Origin: a virus
Taxonomy: Duplodnaviria; Heunggongvirae; Uroviricota; Caudoviricetes
Reading direction: 5' to 3' (one strand)
Length of the DNA stretch: 13,938 nt
IMG/VR virus record: IMGVR_UViG_2695420793_000015
Coordinates: 1 to 13,938 of that record
Each line of letters opens with the position of its first letter. Positions within the stretch are counted from its first letter, which is position 1. The notes below the pieces were generated by a model that made no database searches, was not told the origin of the DNA, and saw only the letters and a program-made list of their open reading frames with translations. Both the position numbers and the translations under genes were made by a program. Below are positions 1-13,938 of the stretch, piece by piece.

Positions 1-270
1 ATGAAAGAGCTTGAGTTAAAGAAACCGATTATCGCTCATGGTGAGACACTCTCCGTACTGGAGTTTGATGAACCCACCGGGAAGGATGTCCGCGAGCTGG
101 GGTATCCCTACCAGATGAATCAGGATGAGTCCGTCAGACTTCTGGCGCATGTGGTGTCGAAATACATTGTGCGGCTGGCGAAAGTGCCGCAAAGCTCTGT
201 CGACCAGATGTCTCCGGCAGACCTGAATGCAGCGGCGTGGCTTGTGGCTGGTTTTTTCCTCCAGGCCTGA
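1..270 (+). CDS. Phage tail assembly chaperone (Mu gp41 / P2 gpE-like); may be 5'-truncated by the window edge
   Basis: Small ORF immediately upstream of the tape measure gene, with a second ORF overlapping its 3' end in the -1 frame. This is the conserved chaperone position in tailed phages. Confidence 0.6.
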   Translation: MKELELKKPIIAHGETLSVLEFDEPTGKDVRELGYPYQMNQDESVRLLAHVVSKYIVRLAKVPQSSVDQMSPADLNAAAWLVAGFFLQA

Positions 271-419
271 CGGCTGAATACCTCACTGATCGCTTCTTTG
301 ACTGCGCCAGCTACTGGCGCATTAATCCCTTCGAATTGCTGAATATGCCGATCAGTGAAATTCCCTTGCTGGTCAGTCAGGCAAACAGGATAGAGCAGGA
401 GAAACGCACACATGGCTGA
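1..419 (+). CDS. Predicted frameshift-extended tail assembly chaperone (G-T-like fusion via -1 shift near 252-258)
   Basis: Joining frame 1 (1..258) to frame 3 (to 419) would give ...VAGFF-PPGLTAEYLTDRFFDCASYWRINPFELLNMPISEIPLLVSQANRIEQEKRTHG. The arrangement is conserved upstream of tape measure genes. Confidence 0.4.
252..258 (+). other. Putative -1 programmed ribosomal frameshift slippery heptamer T_TTT_TTC
   Basis: In the frame of ORF 1..270, codons GGT-TTT-TTC place TTTTTTC in the X_XXY_YYZ register. The -1 frame (ORF 237..419) stays open from here to the TGA at 417-419, which overlaps the tape measure ATG at 412. Confidence 0.5.
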
Positions 420-2244
420 ATTTGAGCTTAAGGCGTTGATCACCGGTGTCGACAGGCTTTCTCCCGCGCTGTCGAAAATGCAAAAGAAAATCCGGGGATT
501 TAAACGCCAGGCGGAAGAGGCGTCACAGGGTGGGCTGGCGCTTGGTGGCGGACTGGCAGCGGGGCTGACGCTTTCCCTGAAATCTTATGCCGATCAGGAA
601 AACGCCGCTACCGGGCTGAAAGTCGCCATGATGGATGCGAACGGCGAGGTTGGAAAGAGCTTTCAGGACATCAATAAACTGGCTATTGGCCTGGGTAACC
701 AGCTACCCGGTACAACGGCTGATTTCCAGAACATGATGCAGATGCTGGTGCGTCAGGGGATCCCGGCAGAAAACATTCTGGGTGGTGTGGGTAAAGCGAC
801 AGCTTATCTTGCGGTACAACTGAAAAAAACACCGGAAGCGGCTGCCGAGTTTGCTGCAAAGATGCAGGATGCTACCGGAACGGCGTCAGAAGACATGATG
901 GGGCTGTTCGACACTATCCAGAAGGCGTTTTATCTGGGCGTTGACGATACCAACATGTTGTCCTTCTTCACTAAAACCAGTTCTGTTCTGAAGATGGTGA
1001 ACAAGGATGGTCTTCAGGCTGCACAGAGCCTTGCCCCCATCAGCGTCATGATGGATCAGATGGGGATGAACGGGGAGTCGGCAGGTAATGCCCTGCGAAA
1101 AGTTATCCAGTCCGGATTAAGCGTTAAGAAAATCAGGGACGTTAATAAAGTTATGGCCCGCCAGAAACTCGGGGTACAGCTCGATTTTACTGACGGCAAA
1201 GGAAGTTTTGGCGGTCTTGATAACATGTTCAGGCAACTGGCAAAGCTGCGAAAACTGACCGACGTTAAGCGAACCGGTGTACTTAAGGCAATATTTGGTG
1301 ATGATGCCGAAACCCTTCAGGTGGTCAATGCACTAATCGATAAAGGAAAGGATGGCTACGATCAGATCCAGCAGAAGATGCATAAACAGGCCAGCCTGAA
1401 TAAACGTGTTCAGGCACAGCTTGGTACGCTGTCCAACCTGTGGGAGGCAATGACAGGGACCGCAACTAACGGCCTTGCGGCTATTGGCGGCGCATTTTCT
1501 GGTGACGCTAAAAATATCACACAATGGCTGGGGGAGTTGGGGGAGAAATTCACGAAGTTTGCGGATGAAAATCCCCGGGTTATTCGCGGCGTCGTCGGGC
1601 TTGCTGCCGGTCTTGCGATTCTGAAACTGGGATTGATGGGCGTGGGCAGTGCCATCAGTATTGTCAGCAGGATTATGTCGATGACGCCGATTGGCATGAT
1701 TGCGACGGCGATTGCTCTGGCTGCGGGATTAATTATCACTAACTGGGATGTTGTCGGACCTTATTTCAAGAAGCTCTGGGAAACCATTGGTCCTTATTTT
1801 GAGGCAGGTTGGGAACTTCTGAAGAAGGTTTTTGCCTGGTCGCCGCTGGGGATGGTGATCAATAACTGGGGACCGGTTGTTAAGTGGTTTCAGGATATGT
1901 GGGACAAGCTGAAGCCAATTATTGAGTGGTTTACCGACAGTTCCGGTGACACGGTCGATGCCATTAACTCTGCGCAGTGGGGCGCGGGTGCTTATGATGC
2001 TTATGGGACGGGAATACCGGCGCGGGGATACACACCTTATCCGGCGGTGGATCCGGCTCAGGCAAACAACGCCTCCGGTGCCACAGGCCCGAATCCCTTC
2101 ATGATTAATAAAGCTACCGCGCCAAAAGTTGATGGTGAGATCAAGGTATCATTTATAAATATGCCATCAGGTATGCGGGTTACGGAAACACGCTCCAGTG
2201 GCATTGATATAAATCACGATGTTGGCTATACCCGATTTTGGTAG
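412..2244 (+). CDS. Phage tail tape measure protein
   Basis: 610-aa ORF with an Ala/Gly/Met/Gln-rich central region, hydrophobic segments and a C-terminal Trp-rich repeat region (GPYFKKLWETIGPYFEAGWELL...). It follows the chaperone/frameshift pair and precedes the baseplate genes. Confidence 0.9.
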   Translation: MAEFELKALITGVDRLSPALSKMQKKIRGFKRQAEEASQGGLALGGGLAAGLTLSLKSYADQENAATGLKVAMMDANGEVGKSFQDINKLAIGLGNQLPGTTADFQNMMQMLVRQGIPAENILGGVGKATAYLAVQLKKTPEAAAEFAAKMQDATGTASEDMMGLFDTIQKAFYLGVDDTNMLSFFTKTSSVLKMVNKDGLQAAQSLAPISVMMDQMGMNGESAGNALRKVIQSGLSVKKIRDVNKVMARQKLGVQLDFTDGKGSFGGLDNMFRQLAKLRKLTDVKRTGVLKAIFGDDAETLQVVNALIDKGKDGYDQIQQKMHKQASLNKRVQAQLGTLSNLWEAMTGTATNGLAAIGGAFSGDAKNITQWLGELGEKFTKFADENPRVIRGVVGLAAGLAILKLGLMGVGSAISIVSRIMSMTPIGMIATAIALAAGLIITNWDVVGPYFKKLWETIGPYFEAGWELLKKVFAWSPLGMVINNWGPVVKWFQDMWDKLKPIIEWFTDSSGDTVDAINSAQWGAGAYDAYGTGIPARGYTPYPAVDPAQANNASGATGPNPFMINKATAPKVDGEIKVSFINMPSGMRVTETRSSGIDINHDVGYTRFW

Positions 2245-2272
2245 CCAGGATTCCCCTCACAGGTATTGCTGG

Positions 2273-2300
2273 TTGTAAGTCATAAATAGAGTGATAGAAT
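2273..2300 (+). promoter_or_regulatory. Putative sigma70 promoter for the moron gene (-35 TTGTAA, 16-bp spacer, -10 TAGAAT)
   Basis: TTGTAA at 2273-2278 and TAGAAT at 2295-2300, in the AT-rich gap between the tape measure stop and the 2336 ATG. Identified by eye only. Confidence 0.25.
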
Positions 2301-2335
2301 TAATGCACATTTAGAAAAATGTTAATAGGCGAAAA

Positions 2336-2866
2336 ATGAAAGGCTATATCACAGCAAGTGTAATTCTTGGAGCAGCGGCTATTTTTTCATCTCTCATAAT
2401 CTCTGGCAACATCTCCTTTAAAGATGAACATATTATTCAGTTATCTGGAGGAGCCATAAAACTTGGTGATGTTTATAAAGAAAATAAATTGATAAGTGCA
2501 AAGATTATTTTTCCAGATAATCAGGGTGAACAGATTCTTGTTGTCGACGGCAATCCTGAAAACTTTAAGGAGGATTTTCAGGAGAAATTAAATAAAGTAA
2601 TAAAAACTTTAAATGCGTCAAAGAAAAAAGATGAAGAGAAAGTTAGCCTGGATAATTTAAGTGTTATTGAAGAGTCTAAACTAGAGCTCGTTTCTGCGGT
2701 GCGTTACTCTGCTCAGTATGTTCCTATGTTTACTCTGACGCTGGACAAAAAAGAAATTACCATGCCTAAAAATACGGTAATATTTCCATTTGCCAGCGAT
2801 GAAACAGCTAAGTATTTAAATGAACAACAGCAAAAGTATAAAGATTCGTTGTTTCTGACTCGCTAA
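2336..2866 (+). CDS. Hypothetical membrane-anchored or secreted protein encoded by a low-GC moron; function unknown
   Basis: 176-aa ORF with an N-terminal hydrophobic segment (ITASVILGAAAIFSSLIISG) and a Lys/Glu/Asn-rich remainder. Its AT-rich composition contrasts sharply with the GC-rich tail genes on both sides, and it is bracketed by a promoter-like sequence and a strong intrinsic terminator. Confidence 0.7.
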   Translation: MKGYITASVILGAAAIFSSLIISGNISFKDEHIIQLSGGAIKLGDVYKENKLISAKIIFPDNQGEQILVVDGNPENFKEDFQEKLNKVIKTLNASKKKDEEKVSLDNLSVIEESKLELVSAVRYSAQYVPMFTLTLDKKEITMPKNTVIFPFASDETAKYLNEQQQKYKDSLFLTR

Positions 2867-2886
2867 TTAATAAAATTCATTACAAG

Positions 2887-2912
2887 GCCACCTTCTAATA
2901 GGTGGCTTTTTT
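2887..2912 (+). terminator. Rho-independent terminator downstream of the moron gene
   Basis: Stem GCCACCT (2887-2893), loop TCTAAT, stem AGGTGGC (2900-2906), then TTTTTT (2907-2912). Confidence 0.7.
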
Positions 2913-2921
2913 ATTTTCGGA

Positions 2922-4256
2922 GTGTATATGACGTGGAAAGACAGGCTTCAGGATGCGTCATTTCGAGGTGTGCCGTTTAAGGTTGAAGAAGAAAGTGCGG
3001 GAACCGGTCGCCGTGTGGAAACACATGAATACCCGAACCGCGACAAGCCCTATACCGAAGATCTGGGAAAAGTCACTTTCCGCCCGTCCATCACAGCTTA
3101 TGTGGTGGGAGATGACTGCTTTGACCAGCGCGATCGCCTGATTGAAGCGCTGAATAAACCCGGTCCCGGCACGCTTGTCCACCCGACATATGGTGAGCTG
3201 AAAGTCTGTGTTGACGGGGAAGTTCGGGTCAGCACATCGAAAAGTGAAGGGCGTATTGTCCGCTTTGACCTGAAGTTTGTCGAAGCAGGAGAACTCTCTT
3301 ACCCCACATCAGGTGCGGCGACGGCGCAGACGCTGATGTCATCCTGTTCTGCACTGGATGACAGCATCAGTGACAGCTTCAGTGGTTTCAGTATCGATGG
3401 TGTGGCGGATTTCGTGCAGAACGACGTTATCGGTAATGCCAGCATAATGCTGGGGTATGTTTCTGATGCGATGAAAGTGGTGGATTCTGCCGTATCGGAT
3501 GCCGCCAGGCTGTTGCAGGGGGATATCTCGGTACTTCTGCCGCCGCCATCGTCAGGCAAAAATTTCGTTGAGCAGGTGCAGAAAATGTGGCGTACCGGGA
3601 AACGCCTTTATGGTAACGCCAGCGACCTGGTCACCATGATCAAAACGCTTTCCGGTGTCAGCCTCGGCAGCGATCTGCAACCGCGCGGCGTCTGGAAAAC
3701 GGACAGTAAAACCACCGCCACGGCTACGCAGCAGCGTAATGTGGTTGCCAGCACCCTTCGTACGACCGCAATCAGCGAAGCGGCGTATGCCATCACCCGA
3801 TTGCCTGCGCCAACAACTTCCGCGGTGATGCAGAATTCCGCAGTGGGGCAGGCAACAACACCTGCGCAGAGCACTGGCTGGCCTTCCGTTACGCATCCGG
3901 CACTGAACAATGCACCGGCGGTGAAAAACACGGTTGACCTGCCGACGTGGGAAGAACTGACTGACATTCGCGACACACTGAATACGGCAATTGATAAGGA
4001 GTTGTCCCGTACAACCAGTGATGCGCTGTTTCTGGCGCTGCGCCGGGTGAAAGCAGATCTGAATGCGGATATCAACACGCGCCTTGAACAGTCTGCACGG
4101 ATCATTCAGCGCACACCGGATGAGGTTTTACCCGCGCTGGTGCTGGCGGCGACCTGGTTTGATAACGCGGCGCGTGACGCGGACATTATCCGGCGTAATG
4201 CCATTACGCATCCCGGCTTTGTGCCGGTGATCCCTCTGAAGGTGCCAGTGCAATGA
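2922..4256 (+). CDS. Phage DNA circulation protein (Mu gpN-like); true start probably ATG at 2928
   Basis: 444-aa ORF in the position between tape measure and baseplate hub, as in Mu-type tail modules. The N-terminal region resembles the DNA-circulation family. GGAG lies 5 nt before the 2928 ATG, and the 3' end overlaps the next gene (ATGA). Confidence 0.75.
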   Translation: MYMTWKDRLQDASFRGVPFKVEEESAGTGRRVETHEYPNRDKPYTEDLGKVTFRPSITAYVVGDDCFDQRDRLIEALNKPGPGTLVHPTYGELKVCVDGEVRVSTSKSEGRIVRFDLKFVEAGELSYPTSGAATAQTLMSSCSALDDSISDSFSGFSIDGVADFVQNDVIGNASIMLGYVSDAMKVVDSAVSDAARLLQGDISVLLPPPSSGKNFVEQVQKMWRTGKRLYGNASDLVTMIKTLSGVSLGSDLQPRGVWKTDSKTTATATQQRNVVASTLRTTAISEAAYAITRLPAPTTSAVMQNSAVGQATTPAQSTGWPSVTHPALNNAPAVKNTVDLPTWEELTDIRDTLNTAIDKELSRTTSDALFLALRRVKADLNADINTRLEQSARIIQRTPDEVLPALVLAATWFDNAARDADIIRRNAITHPGFVPVIPLKVPVQ

Positions 4257-5332
4257 ACGACAATGTCACGCTACGGGTAAATGGCCGGGAGTGGAATGGC
4301 TGGACATCGGTACGCATCGGTGCCGGTATTGAACGGCTGGCGCGGGATTTCAGTGTGGAGATCACCCGACAGTGGCCGGGAGATGAGGGTATCACCACGC
4401 TTCAGCCGCGCATTAAAAACGGTTCAAAAGTGGAGGTGCTGATTGGTGATGAGCTGGTGATCACCGGCTGGGTGGAGGCGACGCCCGTTCGTTACGATGC
4501 CCGTTCGGTCAGCACCGGTATTGCCGGACGCAGTCTGACCGCTGACCTGATTGACTGTGCAGCCGAACCGACACAGTTTAACGGACGATCGCTGGTACAG
4601 ATTGCGCAGGCGCTTGCTGCGCCTTTCGGCATTGAGGTGGTGAACAACAGTGCGCCGTCGGGTGTTATTCCTGATGTCCAGCCTGATCACGGCGAAACGG
4701 TGATTGAGGTGATCAACAAAATACTCGGTCAGCAGCAGGCACTGGCTTACGACGACCCGCACGGCAGGCTGGTGATTGGCGGTATTGGCTCAACGCGGGC
4801 ACATACCGCGCTGGTACTTGGGGAAAATATCCTTTCCTGTGATACGGAGAAGAGTATCCGGGAGCGGTTTTCTGTTTACCAGGTGGCGGGGCAGCGTGCC
4901 GGAAACGACGATGATTTCGGTGAGGCCACCACCACCGCGCTGCGGGCCCGCACAGAGGACGCATTTATTGCCCGTTACCGTCCGATGTATATCAGGCAGA
5001 CAGGGCAGGCTACGGGGGCAGGCTGTATTGCCCGTGCGGACTTTGAAGCCCGACAACGGGCGGCGCGGACGGATGAAACCACCTATGTGGTTCAGGGCTG
5101 GCGACAGGGTAACGGTACGCTGTGGCAGCCCAACCAGCGGGTGATTGTCTTCGATCCGGTCTGTGGTTTCGACAATACCGAACTGCTTGTCTCGGAAGTC
5201 ACGTTTACTCAGGACCAGAACGGCACCCTGACGGAAATCCGTGTCGGCCCGCCTGATGCTTATCTGCCTGAACCTGAAGCCCCCGGCGCGCGGAAAAAGA
5301 AAAAAGCCAGAGTACAGGAGGACCCGTTCTGA
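4253..5332 (+). CDS. Baseplate hub protein (Mu gpP/gp44-like, P2 gpD-like)
   Basis: 359-aa ORF, translationally coupled on both sides, in the conserved position after the DNA circulation gene. Confidence 0.75.
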   Translation: MNDNVTLRVNGREWNGWTSVRIGAGIERLARDFSVEITRQWPGDEGITTLQPRIKNGSKVEVLIGDELVITGWVEATPVRYDARSVSTGIAGRSLTADLIDCAAEPTQFNGRSLVQIAQALAAPFGIEVVNNSAPSGVIPDVQPDHGETVIEVINKILGQQQALAYDDPHGRLVIGGIGSTRAHTALVLGENILSCDTEKSIRERFSVYQVAGQRAGNDDDFGEATTTALRARTEDAFIARYRPMYIRQTGQATGAGCIARADFEARQRAARTDETTYVVQGWRQGNGTLWQPNQRVIVFDPVCGFDNTELLVSEVTFTQDQNGTLTEIRVGPPDAYLPEPEAPGARKKKKARVQEDPF

Positions 5333-5880
5333 TGAGGACGATTGAAGCCATGCAGCGACAACTCCTCGGCCTGATTGGGCGGGCGGTGGTGAAAAGCATC
5401 AGTGCCGCCACGAAATGTCAGACCGTGGATGTGTCCCTGATTGCCGGTGAACCCAAAGCCGGGGTTGAACATCTTGAACCCTACGGTTTTACCGCAAGGG
5501 CAAACAGCGGTGCGGAAGCGGTGGTGTTGTTTCCGGATGGCGACCGTTCTCATGCGGTGGTTGTTACGGTGTCGGACCGTCGCTACCGCCTGAAAGGGCT
5601 GCAAACGGGGGAGGTGGCTGTCTATGACGATCAGGGGCAGTCCGTGACGCTGACCCGGGAGGGGATCGTGGTGGACGGTGCAGGTAAAACGATCACGTTT
5701 CGCAATGCGCCCAGAGCACGTTTTGAAATGGACCTGGAAGTGACCGGACAGGTGAAAGACCTGTGCGACTCCGGCGGCACCACCATGTCAGCGATGCGGC
5801 TTGCCTATAACGGGCATCGTCACAGAGAGAACGGTCAGGGCAGTAACACCGACAAACCTGATAAAGCGATGGAGGCATGA
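5332..5880 (+). CDS. Baseplate assembly / spike protein V (Mu gp45-like)
   Basis: 182-aa ORF whose sequence (…VVLFPDGDRSHAVVV…GEVAVYDDQGQSVTLTREGIVVDGAGKTITF…) fits the gpV spike family. Stop and start overlap (TGATG). Confidence 0.8.
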   Translation: MRTIEAMQRQLLGLIGRAVVKSISAATKCQTVDVSLIAGEPKAGVEHLEPYGFTARANSGAEAVVLFPDGDRSHAVVVTVSDRRYRLKGLQTGEVAVYDDQGQSVTLTREGIVVDGAGKTITFRNAPRARFEMDLEVTGQVKDLCDSGGTTMSAMRLAYNGHRHRENGQGSNTDKPDKAMEA

Positions 5881-6305
5881 TGGAACTGTGGCTGACGGTG
5901 AACGGTAAACGCACCTGCGCCAGCGCACCGCTGGATCCGCTGACCCGCGCCGTGGTGATTTCCCTGTTTACCTGGCGGCGGGCGGAGCCTGATGACAACG
6001 CCGACGTCCCGATGGGATGGTGGGGGGATACCTGGCCTGCGGTACCGAATGACCGTTACGGCTCCCGACTGTGGCTGCTTCAGCGCAGCAAACTGACCAA
6101 TCAGCTGGTGCAGACGGTAAGGGGGTATATCCGCGAATGCCTGCAATGGATGATTGATGACGGCGTGGTGTCCCGTATTGATCTGGATATCCGCCGCACC
6201 GGGATTAATGAACTGGGTAACAGTATCACTCTCTGGCGTCGTGACGGACCGGTAATGATTTCTTTTGATGATCTGTGGAGTGCGATAACGCATGGCGGAC
6301 AGTGA
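5877..6305 (+). CDS. Baseplate protein (Mu gp46-like, P2 gpW-like)
   Basis: 142-aa ORF coupled to its neighbours (ATGATG overlap), in the conserved position between the spike and J-like genes. Confidence 0.7.
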   Translation: MMELWLTVNGKRTCASAPLDPLTRAVVISLFTWRRAEPDDNADVPMGWWGDTWPAVPNDRYGSRLWLLQRSKLTNQLVQTVRGYIRECLQWMIDDGVVSRIDLDIRRTGINELGNSITLWRRDGPVMISFDDLWSAITHGGQ

Positions 6306-7350
6306 ATTTCAGCGCCCGACGCTGGCAGAAAATATCAGTATGCTCCGTAACGATTTATTCGCCAGGCTGGACGTCAGCGACACGCTCCGGCGCATGGATG
6401 AAGACGTGCGGGCAAAGGTGTATGCGGCGGCGCTGCATACGGTTTACGGGTACATCGATTATCTGGCAATGAACATGCTGCCTGACCTGTGCGATGAGTC
6501 CTGGCTGGCGCGACATGCTGCGATGAAACGGTGTCCGCGCAAGGGGGCCACGGCTGCCAGCGGGTATATGCGCTGGGAAGGTGTCAGCGATGGCCTGAAG
6601 GTGACTGCCGGGAGCGTGATTCAGCGCGATGACCTGGTTCAGTACACGGCAACTGCCGATGCAACCAGCTCCGGTGGTGTCCTGCGTGTGCCGATCACTT
6701 GCTCAACTACAGGCGCGGTCGGTAACGCTGACGACGGTACGGCATTAATCCTGGTCACGCCGGTGAATGGTCTGCCGTCTTCCGGTGTGGCTGACACCCT
6801 TACAGGCGGATTTGATACTGAAGAGCTGGAAACGTGGCGCGCCCGCGTCATTGAGCGGTATTACTGGACGCCTCAGGGCGGGGCTGACGGGGACTATGTC
6901 GTCTGGGCTAAAGAAGTGCCCGGCATTACCCGCGCATGGACATACCGACACTGGATGGGAACGGGGACTGTCGGTGTGATGATTGCCAGCAGTGACCTGA
7001 TTAATCCCATTCCGGAAGAATCAACGGAAACGGCGGCAAGACAACATATCGAGCCACTGGCCCCGGTGGCAGGCTCTGATTTGTATGTGTTCAGGCCGGT
7101 GGCACATACGGTGGATTTTCATATCCGTGTGACGCCGGACACACCGGAAATACGGGCTGCAATCACCGCGGAGTTGCGTTCGTTCCTGCTGCGTGATGGT
7201 TATCCGCAGGGAGAACTGAAGGTGTCACGTATCAGTGAAGCGATTTCCGGTGCGAACGGGGAATACAGCCATCAGTTGCTTGCACCGGCGGACAATATCT
7301 CCATTGCAAAAAATGAACTGGCGGTTCTGGGGACGATTTCATGGACGTGA
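6292..7350 (+). CDS. Baseplate J-like protein (Mu gp47-like)
   Basis: 352-aa ORF of typical baseplate-J size, in the conserved position, overlapping both neighbours. Confidence 0.8.
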
Positions 7351-7925
7351 CAAACGATGATTACATCCGTCTGTTGTCGGCACTGCTGCCGCCCGGTCCG
7401 GCGTGGTCAGCCAGCGATCCGGCGATTGCAGGTGCGGCACCGTCATTAACCCGTGTTCATCAGCGTGCGGATGCCCTGATGCGGGAGCTGGATCCGCGCA
7501 CCACCACTGAACTGATAAACCGCTGGGAGCGTCTGTGCGGTCTGCCGGATGAATGTATTCCCGCAGGGACACAGACCCTTCGCCAGCGTCAGCAACGGCT
7601 GGATGCGAAGGTTAATCTGGCGGGCGGCATCAATGAGGATTTTTACCTTGCACAGCTTGCTGCCCTGGGCAGACCAGATGCCGCCATCACGCGATACGAC
7701 AAAAGCACGTTCACCTGCTCATCGGCCTGTACTGACGCTGTGAATGCGCCGGAATGGCGGTATTACTGGCAGGTCAACATGCCAGCCGCCACCAACACCA
7801 CCTGGATGACATGTGGCGATCCCTGTGATTCCGCACTGCGTATCTGGGGCGACACCGTTGTCGAGTGCGTGCTTAACAAACTCTGCCCTTCGCATACCTA
7901 CGTAATTTTTAAATATCCGGAGTAA
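7341..7925 (+). CDS. Tail protein, Mu gp48-like / P2 gpI-like (DUF2313-type)
   Basis: 194-aa ORF directly upstream of the tail fibre gene, translationally coupled to the J-like gene. Confidence 0.7.
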
Positions 7926-7928
7926 TCC

Positions 7929-8738
7929 ATGCATCGTATAGACACGAAAACCGCGCAGAAGGATAAGTTCGGCGCGGGTAAGAACGGTTTTACCCGTGGT
8001 AACCCCCAGACCGGCACACCTGCCACCGATCTGGATGATGACTACTTTGACATGTTGCAGGAAGAACTTTGTAGCGTGGTGGAGGCCTCCGGTGCCAGCC
8101 TGGAGAAAGGGCGGCATGACCAGCTGCTTACCGCACTTCGTGCGCTGCTGTTAAGCCGCAAGAATCCGTTTGGCGATATCAAATCGGATGGCACTGTGCA
8201 AACGGCTCTCGAAAACCTTCGTTTGGGGGCAGGCGCTCCAGCTATCGGAATTCCGTTCTTCTGGCCGTCCACAGCGATGCCAAATACAGTGATAGATGAG
8301 TGGTCAGATATGGTGTTTCTGAAATTCAACGGTGCGACATTTTCGGCAACAACTTATCCGAAGCTGGCGAAGGTGATCCCCAGCTTGACGCTAACCGAAG
8401 CTCGTGGTGAGTTTCCGCGTATTTGGGATGATGGGCGAGGTGTAGATGTCGGGCGCGCACTAATGAGCGCACAGGGTGATGCTATGAGAAATATCTCTGG
8501 AACAGTTCGGCTAGCATCCAACTCATATAATCAAAATACAGCAAGGCAAATGACGGGGGCATTTGGATGGAGTGACTCATCGGCTGGAGATGTTACTAAT
8601 TTTTCACTTACAGCTGCATCAAACACATCTAACTATAAAAATGGGGGGTTTACATTTGATTCTTCAACACAGGTTCCAACGGCCTTGGAGAATCGACCGA
8701 GAAACATTGCTTTTAACTTTCTTGTAAGGGCTAAATAA
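7929..8738 (+). CDS. Tail fibre protein (Mu S-like): constant N-terminal part plus the currently expressed variable C-terminal cassette
   Basis: 269-aa ORF with a conserved tail-fibre N-terminus (…[38 protein letters not shown]…) and a Ser/Thr/Asn/Gly-rich C-terminus. GGAG precedes the ATG. A recombination site lies inside the gene at 8206-8231. Confidence 0.85.
8206..8231. repeat. Putative left crossover site of the invertible segment (hix/gix-like 12-2-12: CTCTCGAAAACC-TT-CGTTTGGGGGCA)
   Basis: The half-site TCTCGAAAACC closely resembles Hin/Gin half-sites (TTCTTGAAAACC / TTCCTGTAAACC). The central TT occupies codon positions 2-3 of the stf frame, the same register as in the partner site. 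Confidence 0.55.
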
Positions 8739-9331
8739 TGAAACCTGTTTTTGACGAAAATGGACTGGCTACTGAACCTGGGGAAACTCGTTGTTTCTAT
8801 TACGACGCTGTGACGTCTGAATATATGGGATGGTCAGACGAATATATTAATCTGGGTGTCAGTATGCCAGGGCATTCAACAGATATTGATCCTGGTGATG
8901 AGGTGGCTGGAAAGATTCCAGTATTTACTGGGATTGGATGGGAGCAGCAGGAAGATCATCGCGGGGAAACAGTTTACTCAACTGAAAGTGGTGATGCATC
9001 AATGGTCGATTATATTGGTCCCATCAAGGATGGATTTACAAGCACTGCACCTTCAACGCCATATGATAAATGGGACGGTGAAAAATGGGTGACAGATACT
9101 GAGGCACAGAATATCGCCGTAGTAGAGGCGGCAGAAGCACAGCGGCAGTTTCTGATTGATACTGCAATGGCTTCCATTGGTCTGATCCAACTGAAATTAC
9201 AGGCAGGTCGGAAGCTGACTGAGGCAGAAACAACCCGACTTAACGCTGTGCTTGATTACATTGACGCGGTGACGGCAACAGATACCAGCACCGCACCGGA
9301 TGTCATCTGGCCTGAACTGCCGGAGGCGTAG
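8738..9331 (+). CDS. tfa: Tail fibre assembly protein (Mu U-like)
   Basis: 197-aa ORF whose ATG overlaps the stf stop (TAATG). The C-terminal region (…LDYIDAVTATDTSTAPDVIWPELPEA) is typical of tail-fibre assembly chaperones. Confidence 0.8.
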   Translation: MKPVFDENGLATEPGETRCFYYDAVTSEYMGWSDEYINLGVSMPGHSTDIDPGDEVAGKIPVFTGIGWEQQEDHRGETVYSTESGDASMVDYIGPIKDGFTSTAPSTPYDKWDGEKWVTDTEAQNIAVVEAAEAQRQFLIDTAMASIGLIQLKLQAGRKLTEAETTRLNAVLDYIDAVTATDTSTAPDVIWPELPEA

Positions 9332-9746
9332 GCCATTCAATATCTGGAGCACTGGAGGAATCAACCAGTTCCAGTGCGTCCAGATAATCCAGCCACAAAT
9401 TATATTGCGCCAGTTCCTCACCTTTCAGGCGACCAATCGCTGCTTTACCAGGCCATTGCTTACTGTATATGTATTCGTTGACCTGATTAATCAATTGCTG
9501 CTTTTCCAGTTCGGCTGCGGCAATTTGTTCCTCATGAGTTGGCGGTGGAATTTCCCCCCAGGTGGGAAGGCCATCATCACCCGCGATGCGTACTTTCCCT
9601 TGCAACGTTCTGTCTTCAATAAATTCCAGGTAAGTGTCATATGTCACTTCGACAATATCAGCAAGTTCCCATCCGGCCTGTTCATATTTCGCCACATCAT
9701 TTTTAGCGAAAAAACTGTTATTTGAGGCGCTATAAACTATTTCCAT
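9303..9746 (-). CDS. Alternative tail fibre assembly protein (Mu U'-like), convergent with tfa
   Basis: 147-aa minus-strand ORF with a Tfa-like C-terminus (…LWLDYLDALELVDSSSAPDIEWPTPPAVQAR). It overlaps the 3' end of the plus-strand tfa by 29 bp and sits directly downstream of the minus-strand fibre cassette. Confidence 0.8.
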   Translation of the reverse strand: MEIVYSASNNSFFAKNDVAKYEQAGWELADIVEVTYDTYLEFIEDRTLQGKVRIAGDDGLPTWGEIPPPTHEEQIAAAELEKQQLINQVNEYIYSKQWPGKAAIGRLKGEELAQYNLWLDYLDALELVDSSSAPDIEWPTPPAVQAR

Positions 9747-9747
9747 A

Positions 9748-10323
9748 TTAATACCCTACTGCAAGATAAAAAACAGATTCACCAGCATCCTGGGATGCTG
9801 TCCCTGGAACGCCAGACCATACCTTATTTATAAAAGCAAAACCTGTTTTACTGAGGTCTGACGCTCTGTACATTGGGCTGAATATCCAATAGTTGGATGC
9901 ATATGTTTGTCCGAAAACAATTCCATAGCACTGGTTTGTAAATGGCGTAGAAAATAATTTTCCACCATTACCAGCGATAGCACCGAATCGCATCTGGAAT
10001 CCATTCGGGAAATTAATTCCGCCTGCCGGTGAAGACCAGTAAGACATATCAGGTATTTGCCCAGCACTATTTCCCACGTTTTTTGTTGCAACGGTTCCTA
10101 ACCCAAGATTAGCTCTTGCGTCAGATTTATTTGTTAACTCATAAAGATTATTTGCCTTTTGAAGTGCTCCTGTTATGCGTAAATCATCACCAGCGGCAAC
10201 GGTTCCGACTGTCGTGCCCACATCCCTTTTCGCCGCTTCTCCTAAACCAACCTTTGAAATATTTTTCTGAATCAGGTGATATTTCGCCTCTTCTCCTGTT
10301 TTTACAACAGGAGAAGCACTCAT
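9748..10323 (-). CDS. Alternative tail fibre C-terminal cassette (Mu S'-like), silent in this orientation
   Basis: Gly/Asn/Ser-rich fibre-tip-like sequence on the minus strand. The part from about 10249 downward would fuse in frame to the constant stf N-terminus after inversion. The N-terminal 24 codons and the ATG at 10323 lie outside the segment and are probably not a real start. Confidence 0.7.
   Translation of the reverse strand: MSASPVVKTGEEAKYHLIQKNISKVGLGEAAKRDVGTTVGTVAAGDDLRITGALQKANNLYELTNKSDARANLGLGTVATKNVGNSAGQIPDMSYWSSPAGGINFPNGFQMRFGAIAGNGGKLFSTPFTNQCYGIVFGQTYASNYWIFSPMYRASDLSKTGFAFINKVWSGVPGTASQDAGESVFYLAVGY
10237..10262. repeat. Putative right crossover site of the invertible segment (TTCTCCTAAACC-AA-CCTTTGAAATAT)
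   Basis: The half-site TTCTCCTAAACC matches the left site's half-site at 9 of 11 positions and resembles gix. The central AA on + (TT on -) is in inverted orientation to the left site and in the same codon register in the minus-strand cassette frame. Confidence 0.5.
10290..10316. repeat. Perfect 27-bp palindrome (CTTCTCCTGTT-TTTAC-AACAGGAGAAG) overlapping the invertase ribosome-binding site
   Basis: Two 11-bp arms are exact reverse complements around a 5-bp centre. The right arm contains AGGAG, 9 nt upstream of the pin ATG. The arms share the CTTCTCCT motif with the right crossover half-site. Confidence 0.6.
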
Positions 10324-10885
10324 GATTTACGGGTATGTTCGTGTATCAACAAATCATCAGGATACAGAGTTGCAACGTCTTGCACTTGAGTCAGCTGGCT
10401 GTGAGCGAATTTATGAAGAATATGCCAGTGGCAGAACAGCTAATCGCCCTGTGTTAAAGGAATTAATTACGGTGATGAAAAGTGGAGATGAGTTGATTGT
10501 CTGGAAGTTAGATCGGATAGGGAGAAATGTGCTGCATGCGCTATTGATGTTTCAAAATCTGCACGAAAAAGGTGTTAATTTTCGGAGTATTACAGATGGC
10601 GTAGACCTGAAAACAGCAAGTGGTCGCTATAATTTCCGTAATATTCTTTCTGCTGCGCAGTATGAATCTGATTTGAATAGCGAGCGAACTTTAGCTGGTT
10701 TGGCTATTGCCAGATCCAAAGGCCGGATTGGTGGGCGTAGACCGAAGTTTAGCGACGAGCAGTGGCAACAGATGGGAGCGCTCATAGCGGCAGGGAAATC
10801 ACGGCGTTATGTTGCACGTATCTATAACGTTGGGCTATCAACCCTATATAAACGATTTCCTGTTACTGGCATTCAAACGAAATAA
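10322..10885 (+). CDS. pin: Serine-recombinase DNA invertase (Pin/Gin/Hin family)
   Basis: 187-aa ORF with the resolvase/invertase N-terminus (YVRVSTNHQ, catalytic Ser) and the characteristic C-terminal DNA-binding region (…GRIGGRRPKF…VGLSTLYKRF…). It lies beside the invertible tail-fibre segment. Confidence 0.9.
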   Translation: MIYGYVRVSTNHQDTELQRLALESAGCERIYEEYASGRTANRPVLKELITVMKSGDELIVWKLDRIGRNVLHALLMFQNLHEKGVNFRSITDGVDLKTASGRYNFRNILSAAQYESDLNSERTLAGLAIARSKGRIGGRRPKFSDEQWQQMGALIAAGKSRRYVARIYNVGLSTLYKRFPVTGIQTK

Positions 10886-10925
10886 TTTAAAAGCAATTTA
10901 AAGAGTTATTTGTCTAATGTTGGAA

Positions 10926-10961
10926 GCCGCAGCCACGTCGTATGCAAGAACGTGCTGCGGC
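10926..10961. other. Imperfect hairpin between convergent pin and dinI-like genes; possible bidirectional terminator
   Basis: GCCGCAGCCACGT …loop… ACGTGCTGCGGC (one bulge). There is no clear U-tract on either strand, so terminator function is uncertain. Confidence 0.25.
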
Positions 10962-11028
10962 TGGCTGGCGAACTTTCGATAGTGCGAGTATTGAATGATT
11001 TCCAGCCGTTACCGATTTTACGTGTTAA

Positions 11029-11277
11029 TTAGTGAACAAACCACTCGTCAGCAGATTCCCAGGTATCTTTCAGAGTCTCCTGAACAAAAGTTTTTGCAGA
11101 ATCCTTATCTGCGGTGCGTGTAACAGAAAGGCCATCGTTGCTGGTGGCTTTTACGATCACCTCTACATCGTCATAACGTTTACTGATGCGTCGGGTTAAT
11201 TCTTCCTTTAACGCATCCACAGCACCGGTTGGCATTTTAGTCATTTTTTCTTTGGCTATACAGATTTCAATACGCAT
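11029..11277 (-). CDS. dinI: DinI-family DNA-damage-inducible protein (prophage-encoded)
   Basis: 82-aa ORF ([31 protein letters not shown]…LSV…[17 protein letters not shown]) that aligns along its whole length with E. coli DinI as recalled from memory (MRIEVTIAK…GAIDAL…ELSRRI…QETWESADDWFV). Two LexA boxes lie upstream. Confidence 0.85.
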
Positions 11278-11290
11278 AAAAGTCCCTCTA

Positions 11291-11310
11291 TACTGTGTTT
11301 GTATACAGTA
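11291..11310. promoter_or_regulatory. LexA box 1 (TACTGT-GTTTGTAT-ACAGTA)
   Basis: Exact CTGT-N8-ACAG SOS-box architecture with the flanking TA/TA, upstream of the dinI-like gene and overlapping its predicted transcription start. Confidence 0.75.
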
Positions 11311-11313
11311 TCA

Positions 11314-11342
11314 TTTTTAACTGTATGGATAAACAGTGTCAA
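11314..11342 (-). promoter_or_regulatory. Putative SOS-regulated sigma70 promoter of the dinI-like gene (-35 TTGACA, 17-bp spacer, -10 TAAAAA)
   Basis: On the minus strand a perfect TTGACA (11342..11337), a 17-nt spacer coinciding with LexA box 2, then TAAAAA (11319..11314). The -35 overlaps the integrase stop codon. Confidence 0.4.
11319..11338. promoter_or_regulatory. LexA box 2 (AACTGT-ATGGATAA-ACAGTG)
   Basis: Second CTGT-N8-ACAG motif, 8 bp from box 1, lying in the spacer between the predicted -35 and -10 of the dinI promoter. Confidence 0.65.
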
Positions 11343-12436
11343 GAGGTCTTATTTCTGCTCCTTTGGAGCTCTTCAAAACGATTATGTAAAGATTTCGGAT
11401 ACAGTTCGGTATATACCTGCCATAGCACGTTTAATGAACGATGCCCTGTAACCTGGGCGACTTCCTCAATACTAAAACCAGCCTCAAATAAGCGACTTGC
11501 CCCTTCTCTACGCAAATCATGGTATCGCAGATCTTTAATACCTAATTTGCTTCTTACCCTCTGGAATCCCGCAGTAACAGAAGTGCTGTTATATGGAAAA
11601 ATGAATTCTGATTTTTTGGGTTGTCGTTGGACGATATCCCAGGCTTCCCCAAGCAAGGCTACTTTCATATGGTTGCCTTCCTTTTTACGTGGATCTTTCC
11701 TGTCTCTTACGAGTATGGATTTTTGTTCCTGATCGAGATCCTCCCATCGTAATCGGCATACTTCACCGATTCGCATACATGACCACACAGAAAATTTGAG
11801 GATATCAACGAACGGAATTTTTGAGCATTTATGTGTAGATCGTTGTTGAAGACCTTCAATGAGCATGTCCAGTTCATCAGATGCTGGTCTACGATTACGA
11901 CGATTTGATTTACCAATTAAACCAAGTTTAAGTAGATATGGACGAGCGGCTTTTGCTGGGTTTGATGTGTAATTAATTCCATATACAGGTTTGGCAGCAT
12001 CCAGAACACTGCCAAGATAACTAACATCGTGGCTAACTGTAGCTGGACCTGCACCAGCGTTGTTTCTTAGCCTGCAATGTTCAATTACGTCATTTTCTGT
12101 CAGTTCAGATAGTTTGATCGCGGAGATGTCACTATCCATAAGCAGTTCCAGCACATATCTTTTAGTACGGCCTGCTTTACCTCCGGCATTTGGGTCATTT
12201 AAATATTTGTGTAGTAAGTCACGGACTGTAAGTCCGTCAACTGCATTTGATGATGGAATGCCATATAGATCTAATTCCATCACTTTCTGTGTGCCCCATG
12301 TTTTGGCATGAGCATGTTTAGGGAATGTTTTGCTTTCCCTGTAAGTGATAACACCTTTTTCTTTGATAATCACATTACAGCGATAGCGTGGTGTGCCATC
12401 GGATTTTAGTCGTTTCTCTATGTTATAGTACGCCAT
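11339..12436 (-). CDS. int: Tyrosine site-specific integrase (dusA-associated type)
   Basis: 365-aa ORF with a tyrosine-recombinase catalytic region (…LRYHDLRREGASRLFEAG…VTGHRSLNVLWQVYTE…). It is the last prophage gene and is divergently oriented from dusA. A GAGG ribosome-binding site lies upstream. Confidence 0.9.
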   Translation of the reverse strand: MAYYNIEKRLKSDGTPRYRCNVIIKEKGVITYRESKTFPKHAHAKTWGTQKVMELDLYGIPSSNAVDGLTVRDLLHKYLNDPNAGGKAGRTKRYVLELLMDSDISAIKLSELTENDVIEHCRLRNNAGAGPATVSHDVSYLGSVLDAAKPVYGINYTSNPAKAARPYLLKLGLIGKSNRRNRRPASDELDMLIEGLQQRSTHKCSKIPFVDILKFSVWSCMRIGEVCRLRWEDLDQEQKSILVRDRKDPRKKEGNHMKVALLGEAWDIVQRQPKKSEFIFPYNSTSVTAGFQRVRSKLGIKDLRYHDLRREGASRLFEAGFSIEEVAQVTGHRSLNVLWQVYTELYPKSLHNRFEELQRSRNKTS

Positions 12437-12456
12437 TACACGACCTCGTTATTTCG

Positions 12457-12491
12457 GGTTCCCATAAAACGTGGGAACCTGTTCGGGAACC
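12457..12491. repeat. Inverted repeat GGTTCCCA-N7-TGGGAACC plus a third GGGAACC copy in the int-dusA intergenic region; candidate integrase/att regulatory element
   Basis: 8-bp perfect inverted repeat at 12457-12464 and 12472-12479, with a further GGGAACC at 12485-12491, between the divergent int and dusA starts. Confidence 0.35.
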
Positions 12492-12524
12492 TAACGCGAG
12501 AAAAATAGCCTGAAATGTTCAAAA

Positions 12525-13562
12525 ATGCACGATAATCATGAAACACAAAAAATTAATCAAACCAGCGTGATGCCTGAAAAAACTGGTGTTTACTGGAATT
12601 CTCGGTTTAGCATTGCTCCTATGCTCGACTGGACGGACAGACATTGCCGCTATTTCTTGCGTCTGCTTTCCCGCAATACGTTGCTGTATACCGAAATGGT
12701 GACCACAGGGGCGATTATTCACGGTAAAGGTGATTACCTGGCGTACAGTGAAGAAGAACATCCGGTAGCGTTGCAACTCGGCGGTAGCGATCCGGCGGCG
12801 CTGGCACAGTGTGCGAAGCTGGCAGAAGCGCGTGGATATGATGAGATCAACCTGAATGTCGGCTGCCCGTCTGACCGGGTGCAGAACGGCATGTTTGGTG
12901 CGTGTCTGATGGGTAATGCGCAGCTGGTTGCCGACTGTGTGAAAGCGATGCGCGATGTGGTGTCGATTCCAGTGACGGTGAAAACGCGTATTGGCATCGA
13001 TGACCAGGACAGCTATGAATTTCTCTGCGATTTCATCAACACTGTTTCCGGCAAAGGCGAGTGTGAGATGTTTATCATCCACGCACGTAAAGCCTGGCTT
13101 TCGGGGTTAAGCCCGAAAGAAAACCGTGAAATCCCGCCGCTCGATTATCCGCGTGTGTATCAACTGAAGCGTGACTTTCCGCATCTGACAATGTCGATTA
13201 ACGGTGGTATCAAGTCGCTGGAAGAGGCCAAAGCACACCTGCAACATATGGATGGCGTGATGGTCGGGCGCGAGGCGTATCAGAATCCGGGTATTCTGGC
13301 GGCAGTAGACCGGGAGATCTTTGGTTCCTCGGATACCGATGCCGATCCGGTGGCGGTAGTGCGCGCCATGTATCCGTACATTGAGCGTGAACTCAGCCAG
13401 GGGACGTATCTCGGCCATATTACCCGGCATATGTTGGGCTTGTTCCAGGGTATTCCTGGCGCGCGGCAGTGGCGGCGTTATTTAAGTGAAAATGCCCATA
13501 AAGCGGGTGCAGACATTAATGTGCTGGAACACGCGCTCAAACTGGTGGCGGATAAGCGTTAA
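12525..13562 (+). CDS. dusA: tRNA-dihydrouridine synthase A
   Basis: 345-aa ORF with Dus-family motifs (…[14 protein letters not shown]…NLNVGCPS…) and full-length resemblance to enterobacterial DusA; pspG follows immediately, as in the E. coli chromosome. A shorter start at the in-frame ATG at 12570 is possible. Confidence 0.9.
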
Positions 13563-13592
13563 CTTTTCACCAAAAAGTAGTCAAATTCACCA

Positions 13593-13620
13593 CGCCCTGC
13601 GCACCGTCGCGGGGCGTTTT
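13593..13620 (+). terminator. Possible intrinsic terminator after dusA
   Basis: GC-rich imperfect hairpin (CGCCCTGCG…CGCGGGGCG) followed by TTTT, about 30 bp after the dusA stop. Confidence 0.3.
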
Positions 13621-13644
13621 GCTGTTAAATCAATAGATTATTTT

Positions 13645-13660
13645 TGGCATGATTCTTGTA
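13645..13660 (+). promoter_or_regulatory. Putative sigma54 promoter of pspG (TGGCAT-N5-TTGTA)
   Basis: The GG (13646-13647) and the -12 element are at the consensus spacing for TGGCAC-N5-TTGCA, about 36 bp upstream of the pspG ATG. The -12 element is TTGTA rather than TTGCA. Confidence 0.4.
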
Positions 13661-13695
13661 ATGCCAGCAAGAGATTTCATATTTGGGAGAGCATC

Positions 13696-13938
13696 ATGCT
13701 GGAACTACTTTTTGTGATTGGCTTTTTTGTCATGCTGATGGTCACCGGCGTTTCGTTGCTGGGCATTATCGCCGCGCTGGTTGTGGCGACGGCCATTATG
13801 TTCCTCGGCGGTATGCTGGCATTGATGATTAAGTTGCTGCCGTGGTTACTACTGGCGATTGCGGTGGTGTGGGTTATTAAGGCGATTAAAGCACCAAAAG
13901 TGCCGAAATATCAGCGTTATGACCGCTGGCGTTACTAA
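13696..13938 (+). CDS. pspG: Phage shock protein G
   Basis: 80-aa highly hydrophobic protein (MLELLFVIGFFVMLMVTGVSLLGIIAALVVATAIMF…KYQRYDRWRY) matching PspG, with GGGAGA 6 nt upstream and the conserved dusA-pspG adjacency. Confidence 0.85.
   Translation: MLELLFVIGFFVMLMVTGVSLLGIIAALVVATAIMFLGGMLALMIKLLPWLLLAIAVVWVIKAIKAPKVPKYQRYDRWRY

Follow-up and report, generated by a model that had tools for sequence, protein, structure and literature searches.

The right-hand end of the window, by which we mean the whole 13,938-nucleotide stretch of DNA analysed here, is where a phage integration module gives way to host genes. The genes and sites that make up this end are as follows, with the Pfam match given where a gene was assigned by it.

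11029-11277, minus strand: dinI-like gene (PF06183, E=1e-19)
11291-11310: LexA-box-like site TACTGTGTTTGTATACAGTA upstream of dinI, sequence fits CTG-N10-CAG
11319-11338: second LexA-box-like site AACTGTATGGATAAACAGTG upstream of dinI, fitting the same pattern
11339-12436, minus strand: tyrosine integrase (int) ORF of 365 aa, dusA-specific (PF00589, E=1e-20)
12525-13562, plus strand: tRNA-modification gene dusA, 345 aa (PF01207, E=8e-105)
13696-13938, plus strand: host pspG, so named in the annotation of matching genomes

The integrase and dusA are divergent, and 88 bp separate the ATG of int (12436) from the ATG of dusA (12525), which bears out the first-pass annotation, where the gap between the two genes had been put at about 90 bp. 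The tail genes of SfII, SfV and SfI are matched at 97% identity by positions 1-8227, while homology of mEp460 and Lys8385Vzw to the window starts at 10924-10927. Since the dinI-int-attP module (approximately 10924-12628) is common to the lambdoid phages mEp460, Lys8385Vzw and 1720a-02 and the tail is SfII/SfV/SfI-like, the integration module has evidently moved between phage types. The best match amongst complete E. coli genomes accounts for 89% of the window at 96.7% identity. Inverted-repeat searches for the crossover sites of a tail-fibre inversion segment yielded nothing convincing.

The phage-host boundary and the att core

The dusA locus of K-12 BW2952 was used as the empty-site reference, with all identities calculated without gaps. 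Similarity between the window and K-12 is absent to the left of approximately 12517, and on the right of this position the agreement rises in steps, as the following segments show.

12437-12516: 18 of 80 positions identical to K-12
12525-12620, plus strand: phage-supplied dusA codons 1-32, 78 of 96 positions identical to K-12, with 9 amino-acid changes
12621-12628: crossover segment ATGCTCGA, 8 of 8 positions identical to K-12; identical in attB, attP and both junctions; dusA codons M33, L34 and part of D35
12629-13562, plus strand: host part of dusA, 922 of 934 positions identical to K-12
13563-13938: 376 of 376 positions identical to K-12
12617-12633: hybrid att core region, with putative phage half-site TCCTAT, centre GCTCG and putative host half-site ACTGGA

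Mismatches to K-12 number 18 in the 96 nucleotides before 12621 against 12 in the 934 nucleotides after 12628, and from 12629 onward the identity is 98.7-100%. T12620 is the last phage-specific base and C12629 the first host-specific one. Alignment to a prophage-free dusA, proposed in the first-pass annotation as a check, therefore gives a sharp identity break, and the unbroken identity up to int that would have spoken against a junction was not seen. The dusA-pspG part is matched by all 5,426 complete E. coli genomes, the integrase as well in only 734 of them. This break from K-12, together with the repeat at the far prophage end in the lysogen NZ_CP042969.1 described below, locates the crossover inside ATGCTCGA, at 12621-12628. 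The att core and the exact boundary had earlier been expected within 12437-12620; a boundary does exist, but it lies 1-8 bp past that range.

In the alignment of attP with attB, the right half of the attP core reads ATAGGA, giving a perfect 6-bp inverted repeat, TCCTAT-GCTCG-ATAGGA. From this arrangement we infer that TCCTAT, ATAGGA and the host-derived ACTGGA may be core-type half-sites of the integrase. As to nomenclature, the junction is an attR when read in the direction of dusA, and corresponds to what is called attL in the Phi-stx2dact paper (PMC6328086).

The far prophage end and the free phage genomes

The window covers the integrase-side end of the prophage only, and the repeat at the far end is known from close relatives. 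The lysogen NZ_CP042969.1 is 99.8% identical to the window over the region from int to pspG, and the distance to its other prophage end is 38,791 bp. There, a displaced K-12-type dusA 5' fragment is found that is identical to K-12 through ATGCTCGA and then continues as TAGGATGTACC..., and the stub is labelled in RefSeq as a truncated dihydrouridine synthase pseudogene. The matching repeat predicted for the other end of the prophage was thus recovered, albeit in a near-identical prophage and not in this one.

Free phage genomes give the complementary view. The match of mEp460, SKA5 and Lys8385Vzw to the window stops exactly at 12628, beyond which their sequence is that seen at the far end of the lysogen, and a five-way alignment shows attP to consist of the left part of the window and the right part of the lysogen's far end. 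Its order is int, GGGAACC copies, phage-borne dusA start, ATGCTCGA and P' arm, and an attP circle would read across the core as ...GCTCCTATGCTCGATAGGATG.... mEp460 (NC_019716.1) and SKA5 (OR670062.1) share the dinI-int-attP module with the window (97-98% identity) and, being free phage genomes and not junctions, provide attP directly; SKA5 additionally shares tail genes with the window. In the related lysogen (L003), a gene of the PrtN family is located at 21276-21557, approximately 1.5 kb inward from the far end; in mEp460 such a gene is found across attP.

The integrase and its family

Residues 1-364 of the 365 residues of the integrase are identical to the integrase of phage 1720a-02 (Phi-stx2dact), and R222, H306, R309/R310, H332 and Y342 are invariant or nearly so in 43 homologues. 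In the structural model, a three-stranded sheet (residues 2-10, 16-26 and 29-38) and a helix at 41-58, with a pLDDT of ~85-90, are followed by core-binding and catalytic domains. On fold search, full-length lambda Int chains aligned over 359-365 columns and lambda Int 75-356 over 296, with low TM-scores (0.34-0.39), and a Pfam search of the N-terminus of the integrase did not detect an arm-binding family. The likeness to the Int proteins of lambda, HK022 and Tn916/Tn1549 would consist in three predicted domains and in putative arm motifs that flank a short core with inverted half-sites. Differences from the lambda Int type are that attP lies upstream of int here, so that int and the directionality factor come to be at opposite prophage ends, and that the arm-binding domain families have no sequence-level match in this integrase.

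The integrase belongs to the published family of dusA-associated or dusA-specific integrases (DAI), as seen from its catalytic residues, its divergence from dusA, the insertion at the 5' end with matching repeats and the in-frame replacement of that end. Farrugia et al. 2015 defined these integrases and their elements in the dusA 5' end, and described semi-conserved flanking repeats as well as a replacement 5' end in which the first strand (beta-1) of the TIM barrel is included (PMC4482086). The elements of that study and the window are alike in the divergent integrase, the conserved dusA 5' site and the direct repeats at both ends, whereas the att repeats given there are 21-bp and semi-conserved, as against the 8-bp identity block and the proposed 3+2 arm layout here.

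For 1720a-02/Phi-stx2dact (KF030445.1), integration approximately 100 bp into dusA of Citrobacter rodentium has been shown experimentally, with a 7-base core and an in-frame phage dusA' ORF; attL, attR and attP were sequenced and attP circles were found in vivo (PMC6328086). This phage and the window have the same integrase (364/365), target, core sequence and dusA' next to int, and the published 7-base core falls within the ATGCTCGA sequence. However, Phi-stx2dact is a lambdoid Stx2 phage residing in Citrobacter rodentium, whereas here the module is carried by an SfV/SfII-like phage with Mu-type tail genes and the host attB is a K-12-type E. coli locus. dusA is among the listed insertion sites of Stx phages.

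Durand et al. 2021 reported that IMEVchUSA3, when in E. coli K-12, provides a new promoter and an N-terminus of identical length, and that its excision needs a PrtN-like protein, RdfN, encoded across attP from int (PMC8409611). The SGI1-like Vibrio elements are mobilizable islands under AcaCD of IncC plasmids, in contrast to the tailed prophage here, and expression of the rebuilt dusA was measured for IMEVchUSA3 (PMC8409611). The statement in the first-pass annotation that dusA-specific integrases insert at the dusA 5' end and bring a replacement for it agrees with all three studies (PMC4482086, PMC8409611, PMC6328086). The mechanism of the junction is already known and published, and beyond the literature consulted only the architecture of the arm sites and a possible fossil origin of the K-12 dusA start, both discussed below, are added by this analysis.

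A model of the junction

We consider it very probable that the window ends in the integrase-proximal junction of a prophage in dusA, with a phage-supplied 5' end and putative arm sites. According to this model, the prophage would integrate by site-specific recombination, catalysed by its tyrosine recombinase, into the conserved stretch of dusA coding for APMLDWTD. Strand exchange would take place inside ATGCTCGA, leaving phage sequence to the left of 12621 and host sequence from 12629. attP would bring in the dusA leader, codons 1-32 and most likely a promoter, by which an in-frame DusA of 345 aa would be rebuilt, an enzyme that is presumably active, and at the far end of the prophage the original dusA 5' fragment would be left behind as a stub. 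The N-terminal domain of the integrase is predicted to bind the three GGGAACC copies at 12457-12492 and two further copies in P', forming a lambda-like intasome, and excision would require the PrtN-family directionality factor encoded across attP.

It may be argued that the junction is a dead scar, the prophage being defective and its int-att module inactive, as the directionality factor and the far end fall outside the window and related lysogens have some decayed genes (stfP, DUF2570 and yfdR pseudogenes). We regard this as unlikely, because the int ORF is intact and shares 364 identical residues with an integrase proven to integrate and excise, and SKA5 and mEp460, both isolated as phages, have the same core and putative arm sites with little or no difference.

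The GGGAACC repeats

The 88 bp between int and dusA contain a cluster of short repeats, of which the individual sites are given below.

12457-12464, minus strand: inverted copy GGTTCCCA, putative arm-type site
12472-12480, plus strand: direct copy 1, TGGGAACCT, putative arm-type site
12484-12492, plus strand: direct copy 2, CGGGAACCT, putative arm-type site, 12 bp after copy 1
12499-12507: A-rich block AGAAAAATA, conserved after the second direct copy in enterobacterial elements (23 elements and the window aligned)

Across a 7-nt spacer, the 8 bp of GGTTCCCA (12457-12464) are repeated in perfect inverted form as TGGGAACC (12472-12479); GGGAACC is present for a third time at 12485-12491, and GGGAACCT occurs as a direct repeat with 12-bp spacing (12473 and 12485). 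The inverted repeat and the additional copy noted earlier from the sequence are thus all found, at 12457-12491. The number of GGGAACC motifs in the window is unremarkable, with four against 1.56 expected and 12 of 200 shuffles reaching four; what is remarkable is the clustering, with three copies inside 35 bp. In the 38.8-kb near-identical prophage, four of the eleven exact GGGAACC copies and one copy with a single mismatch are at most 170 bp from the att core. In attP, the P' arm GGGAGCCTATTGGGAACC holds two copies, at +51 and +62 when counted from the first base of the core. The other three copies precede the core by 136-164 bp, which gives attP as a whole a 3+2 layout. mEp460 and SKA5 are alike through the last P' copy and diverge completely just beyond it, and this position marks the edge of the shared integration module. 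The A-rich block AGAAAAATA might serve as a bend, as a site for a host factor or as an element of a promoter.

The same arrangement was looked for in relatives by scanning one genome per species with an alignment of the integrase, which gave 80 relatives at 52-99% identity. In 55 of these 80, the dusA core is located 164-197 nt from the start of int in the same divergent arrangement. An exact direct repeat of at least 7 nt, with a spacing of 11-12 bp and within 80 nt of int, was detected in 32 of the 55 loci as compared to 1% of control windows, the loci being phylogenetically related so that the counts overstate their independence. An inverted copy with at most one mismatch is present upstream in 20 of the 37 loci having a repeat of at least 6 nt. 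The motif itself differs between lineages (GGGAACC, GGGGTGC, GGTGTAC, GGTGTCC, GGGGCAC, GGGGTAC and TGTTTCC), and its inverted and direct copies co-vary. Pairs on both arms were also observed in distant members: the 14-kb Vibrio element PE001 (integrase 55% identical) has CGTACT pairs, that in P' at +52/+63 as compared to +51/+62 in the family of this phage, and the Klebsiella phage Kp4887-1 (integrase 52% identical, apparently with another target) has GGGGTGC and GGGGTyC pairs.

From their positions and their recurrence on both arms, the GGGAACC copies are probably arm-type integrase sites in a 3+2 layout, and the dusA-specific family would then have a conserved layout of three arm sites in P and two in P', with a specificity that co-evolves with the integrase. 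The copies might instead be operators, bound by a transcription factor or by a directionality factor of the PrtN type and controlling the divergent int and dusA promoters. They do sit in the 88 bp between the divergent start codons, from 20 bp off the ATG of int, and an inverted repeat with a 7-nt spacer is typical of a dimer operator. This explanation is, however, quite improbable in our judgement, as the motif appears again as a direct pair across the core in attP, where a divergent promoter pair is absent. Moreover, the motif changes with the lineage of the integrase while its spacing and position stay constant on both arms, despite the unrelated cargo of the elements sharing the layout, which range over a myovirus, lambdoid siphoviruses and the 14-kb tectivirus-like Vibrio element. 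Sites of directionality factors are usually on one arm only, as for lambda Xis.

The phage-supplied dusA 5' end

A replacement dusA 5' sequence lies next to int in the free phages mEp460 and SKA5, and in SKA5 this segment is annotated as a 'tRNA-dihydrouridine' stub ORF. As free phages carry the replacement segment and the homology of the window to them ends at 12628, the dusA 5' end is phage-borne, and what the first-pass annotation had offered as a possibility is supported by the presence of the segment in the two phage genomes. The element supplies an in-frame replacement, in which codons 1-32 are phage-derived and the 345-aa ORF is left intact. One might suppose that this prophage did not bring in the divergent 96 nt at the start of dusA, that they represent allelic variation of the host or an older relic, and that the true phage end is nearer int. 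This is very hard to sustain: empty E. coli sites do have at least two unrelated dusA 5' ends and the K-12-type end is 81% identical to that of the window, but the genomes of the isolated phages mEp460 and SKA5 themselves contain exactly this segment, placed between int and the core, and the same N-terminus occurs beside the same dinI-int module in Salmonella and Cronobacter, whose native DusA N-termini differ.

Two further features of the phage-supplied start are referred to in what follows.

12421-12429, plus strand: TGTTATAGT, extended -10-like motif toward dusA, antisense within int codons 3-6
12570-12585, plus strand: ATGCCTGAAAAAACTG, 16-nt block identical in the phage and K-12-type copies, holding a chimeric switch

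A scan of 12300-12750 for sigma-70 promoters and terminators found nothing, the scan requiring a -35 match, which makes extended -10 promoters invisible to it. Of the 56 tabulated dusA-linked sequences, 23 retain the motif TGnTATA(G/A)T, all 23 being enterobacterial with integrases 62-100% identical, and motifs of this kind are also present upstream of dusA at empty loci, as TGGTATAGT in the K-12-type and TGCTATAGT in the B2-type. TGTTATAGT is therefore put forward, tentatively and at somewhat less than even odds, as a candidate for the phage-supplied dusA promoter. Alternatively, TGnTATA(G/A)T may be conserved because the integrase has to start with MAYY, which constrains the coding sequence.

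Two dusA starts in E. coli and a possible fossil

Empty E. coli loci have two forms of dusA. A short form occurs in 1,043 of the 5,426 genomes, for example in strain 4/0, where DusA has 331 aa and zur lies 155 bp upstream, and all other genomes carry the K-12 form, whose 345-aa DusA begins MHGNSEMQKINQTS.... The N-termini of DusA in Enterobacterales are likewise bimodal. The short class has 13-18 residues before PMLDWTD, is variable between genera, and is found in Salmonella (MQPETQSSALPAYRFS), Citrobacter, Leclercia, Cronobacter and Klebsiella; in the long class, PML is preceded by exactly 31 residues and the start is usually MH[EDGQ]N. At all loci examined the long class adjoins an integrase, except for K-12-type E. 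coli and one Serratia genome, and the short-class Klebsiella locus examined is without one. The 96 nt of K-12 are identical at 78-81 of 96 positions to the copies on elements (this phage, Kosakonia, Pluralibacter and Phytobacter), and at 32 of 96 to the short E. coli form.

These observations incline us, with some reserve, to the view that a dusA-specific element, having lost its integrase, left the K-12-type dusA start as its fossil. The fossil segment would span from just after the promoter-like motif TGGTATAGT to the att core, and would be present in approximately four-fifths of E. coli genomes. A relic of int upstream of K-12 dusA was searched for by tblastn with seven integrases, which gave no significant match, the best one (E ~0.03) falling inside a DUF2713 gene, and by an nhmmer profile of the int start and intergenic region, which gave only a weak match at TATGGTATAGTAC (E=0.26). 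This 13-mer was considered as a relic of the int start and rejected, because strain HH45, which has the K-12 form without the DUF2713 genes, shows the 13-mer to be homologous to the B2-type upstream region. In HH45 it can be seen that the zur-proximal region and the TGnTATAGT motif are common to both forms, which then diverge until approximately 10 nt before the core, and the preferred interpretation of TATGGTATAGTAC is as the native promoter region of dusA, carried by elements too. Amongst titles and abstract openings, publications evidently on an element origin of the K-12 dusA start were not found.

Exchange between phage and resident copies is indicated by a Salmonella lysogen with the same module. 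Its dusA is phage-type at nine informative sites (12532-12569) and K-12-type at the next nine (12586-12620), with the switch in the block ATGCCTGAAAAAACTG at 12570-12585, and this chimeric gene shows that the phage and resident copies exchange sequence. Such a start is the product expected of homologous, not integrase-mediated, excision from a K-12-type E. coli lysogen.

Implications

For the strain from which the window derives, the 345-aa DusA is a phage-host hybrid and the end of the prophage for annotation purposes is 12621-12628. The stub in NZ_CP042969.1 is the displaced original dusA start, and the same is expected in similar lysogens. If the fossil origin of the K-12-type start is true, the site at which new phages of the dusA-specific family integrate is a relic junction, the 81% similarity of the phage and resident sequences reflects common element ancestry and not mimicry of a host gene, and resident and phage dusA copies exchange segments by homologous recombination. 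An element-derived K-12 start would matter for annotation of the DusA N-terminus in its 331-aa and 345-aa forms, as well as for experiments in which K-12 dusA is taken as an untouched attB.

Mosaic composition of the phage

Tail genes in positions 1-8227 of the window share 97 % identity with Shigella phages SfII, SfV and SfI, and the dinI-int-attP module (10924-12628) shows 97 % identity to lambdoid mEp460, Lys8385Vzw and Stx phage 1720a-02. The phage is a mosaic of Shigella-phage-like tail genes and a lambdoid/Stx-phage-like dinI-int-attP module. Features identified between and within these parts are as follows.

7929-10885: region with tail-fibre genes and tail-fibre-assembly genes arranged in two opposed sets, plus the invertase gene
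8738-9331, plus strand: Caudo_TAP
9303-9746, minus strand: Caudo_TAP
10322-10885: serine DNA invertase, adjoining the opposed tail-fibre gene sets
11291-11310 and 11319-11338: two LexA-box-like sequences (CTG-N10-CAG), upstream of the DinI-like gene

The gene layout of 7929-10885 resembles the invertible host-range segment of Mu G type; crossover inverted repeats were sought for this segment and not found. The LexA-box-like pair lies between the DinI-like gene and the 3' end of int, and these putative boxes suggest that the DinI-like accessory gene is under SOS control.

Phage-supplied and K-12-type dusA starts

The phage-supplied dusA start codon is spanned by AAAATGCAC(G/C)A.AAT, at 12517-12539 of the window and at the equivalent positions of related enterobacterial elements (L011-L036), amongst which it is nearly invariant, the codons after it being unrelated. 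A Shine-Dalgarno sequence is absent. The conserved sequence may represent a DNA or RNA signal and not a protein constraint.

The dusA starts compared with that of the window (12525-12620) were:

L001 1421-1599: K-12-type dusA start (K-12 BW2952, empty locus)
L006 3920-4006: short-form dusA start (strain 4/0, empty locus)
L095 3001-3104: chimeric phage-supplied dusA start (Salmonella lysogen), corresponding to window 12525-12628

Up to 12569 in window numbering, the Salmonella start is of the window type at 9 informative sites; from 12586 onward it is of the K-12 type at 9 sites, and the switch point lies inside a 16-nt identical block. Such a chimera is compatible with a prophage that was excised by homologous recombination in a K-12-type E. 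coli host and then integrated in Salmonella.

The short DusA form (331 aa), carried by 1,043 of 5,426 E. coli genomes (about 19 %), is also the form found in Salmonella, Citrobacter and Klebsiella. K-12-type DusA (345 aa, MHGNSEMQ...) has exactly 31 residues ahead of PMLDWTD and an MHxN start, a class of N-termini that, apart from the K-12 type, is supplied by dusA-specific elements; element copies match the K-12 start at 78-81 of 96 nt. Serratia sp. L9 also encodes a long-class DusA (349 aa, MNQNQEKVIP...; L092 4001-5050), with no integrase near the gene in that locus. The K-12 dusA start may be a fossil left by an old element, and the Serratia gene may mark a further fossil junction, beyond E. 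coli.
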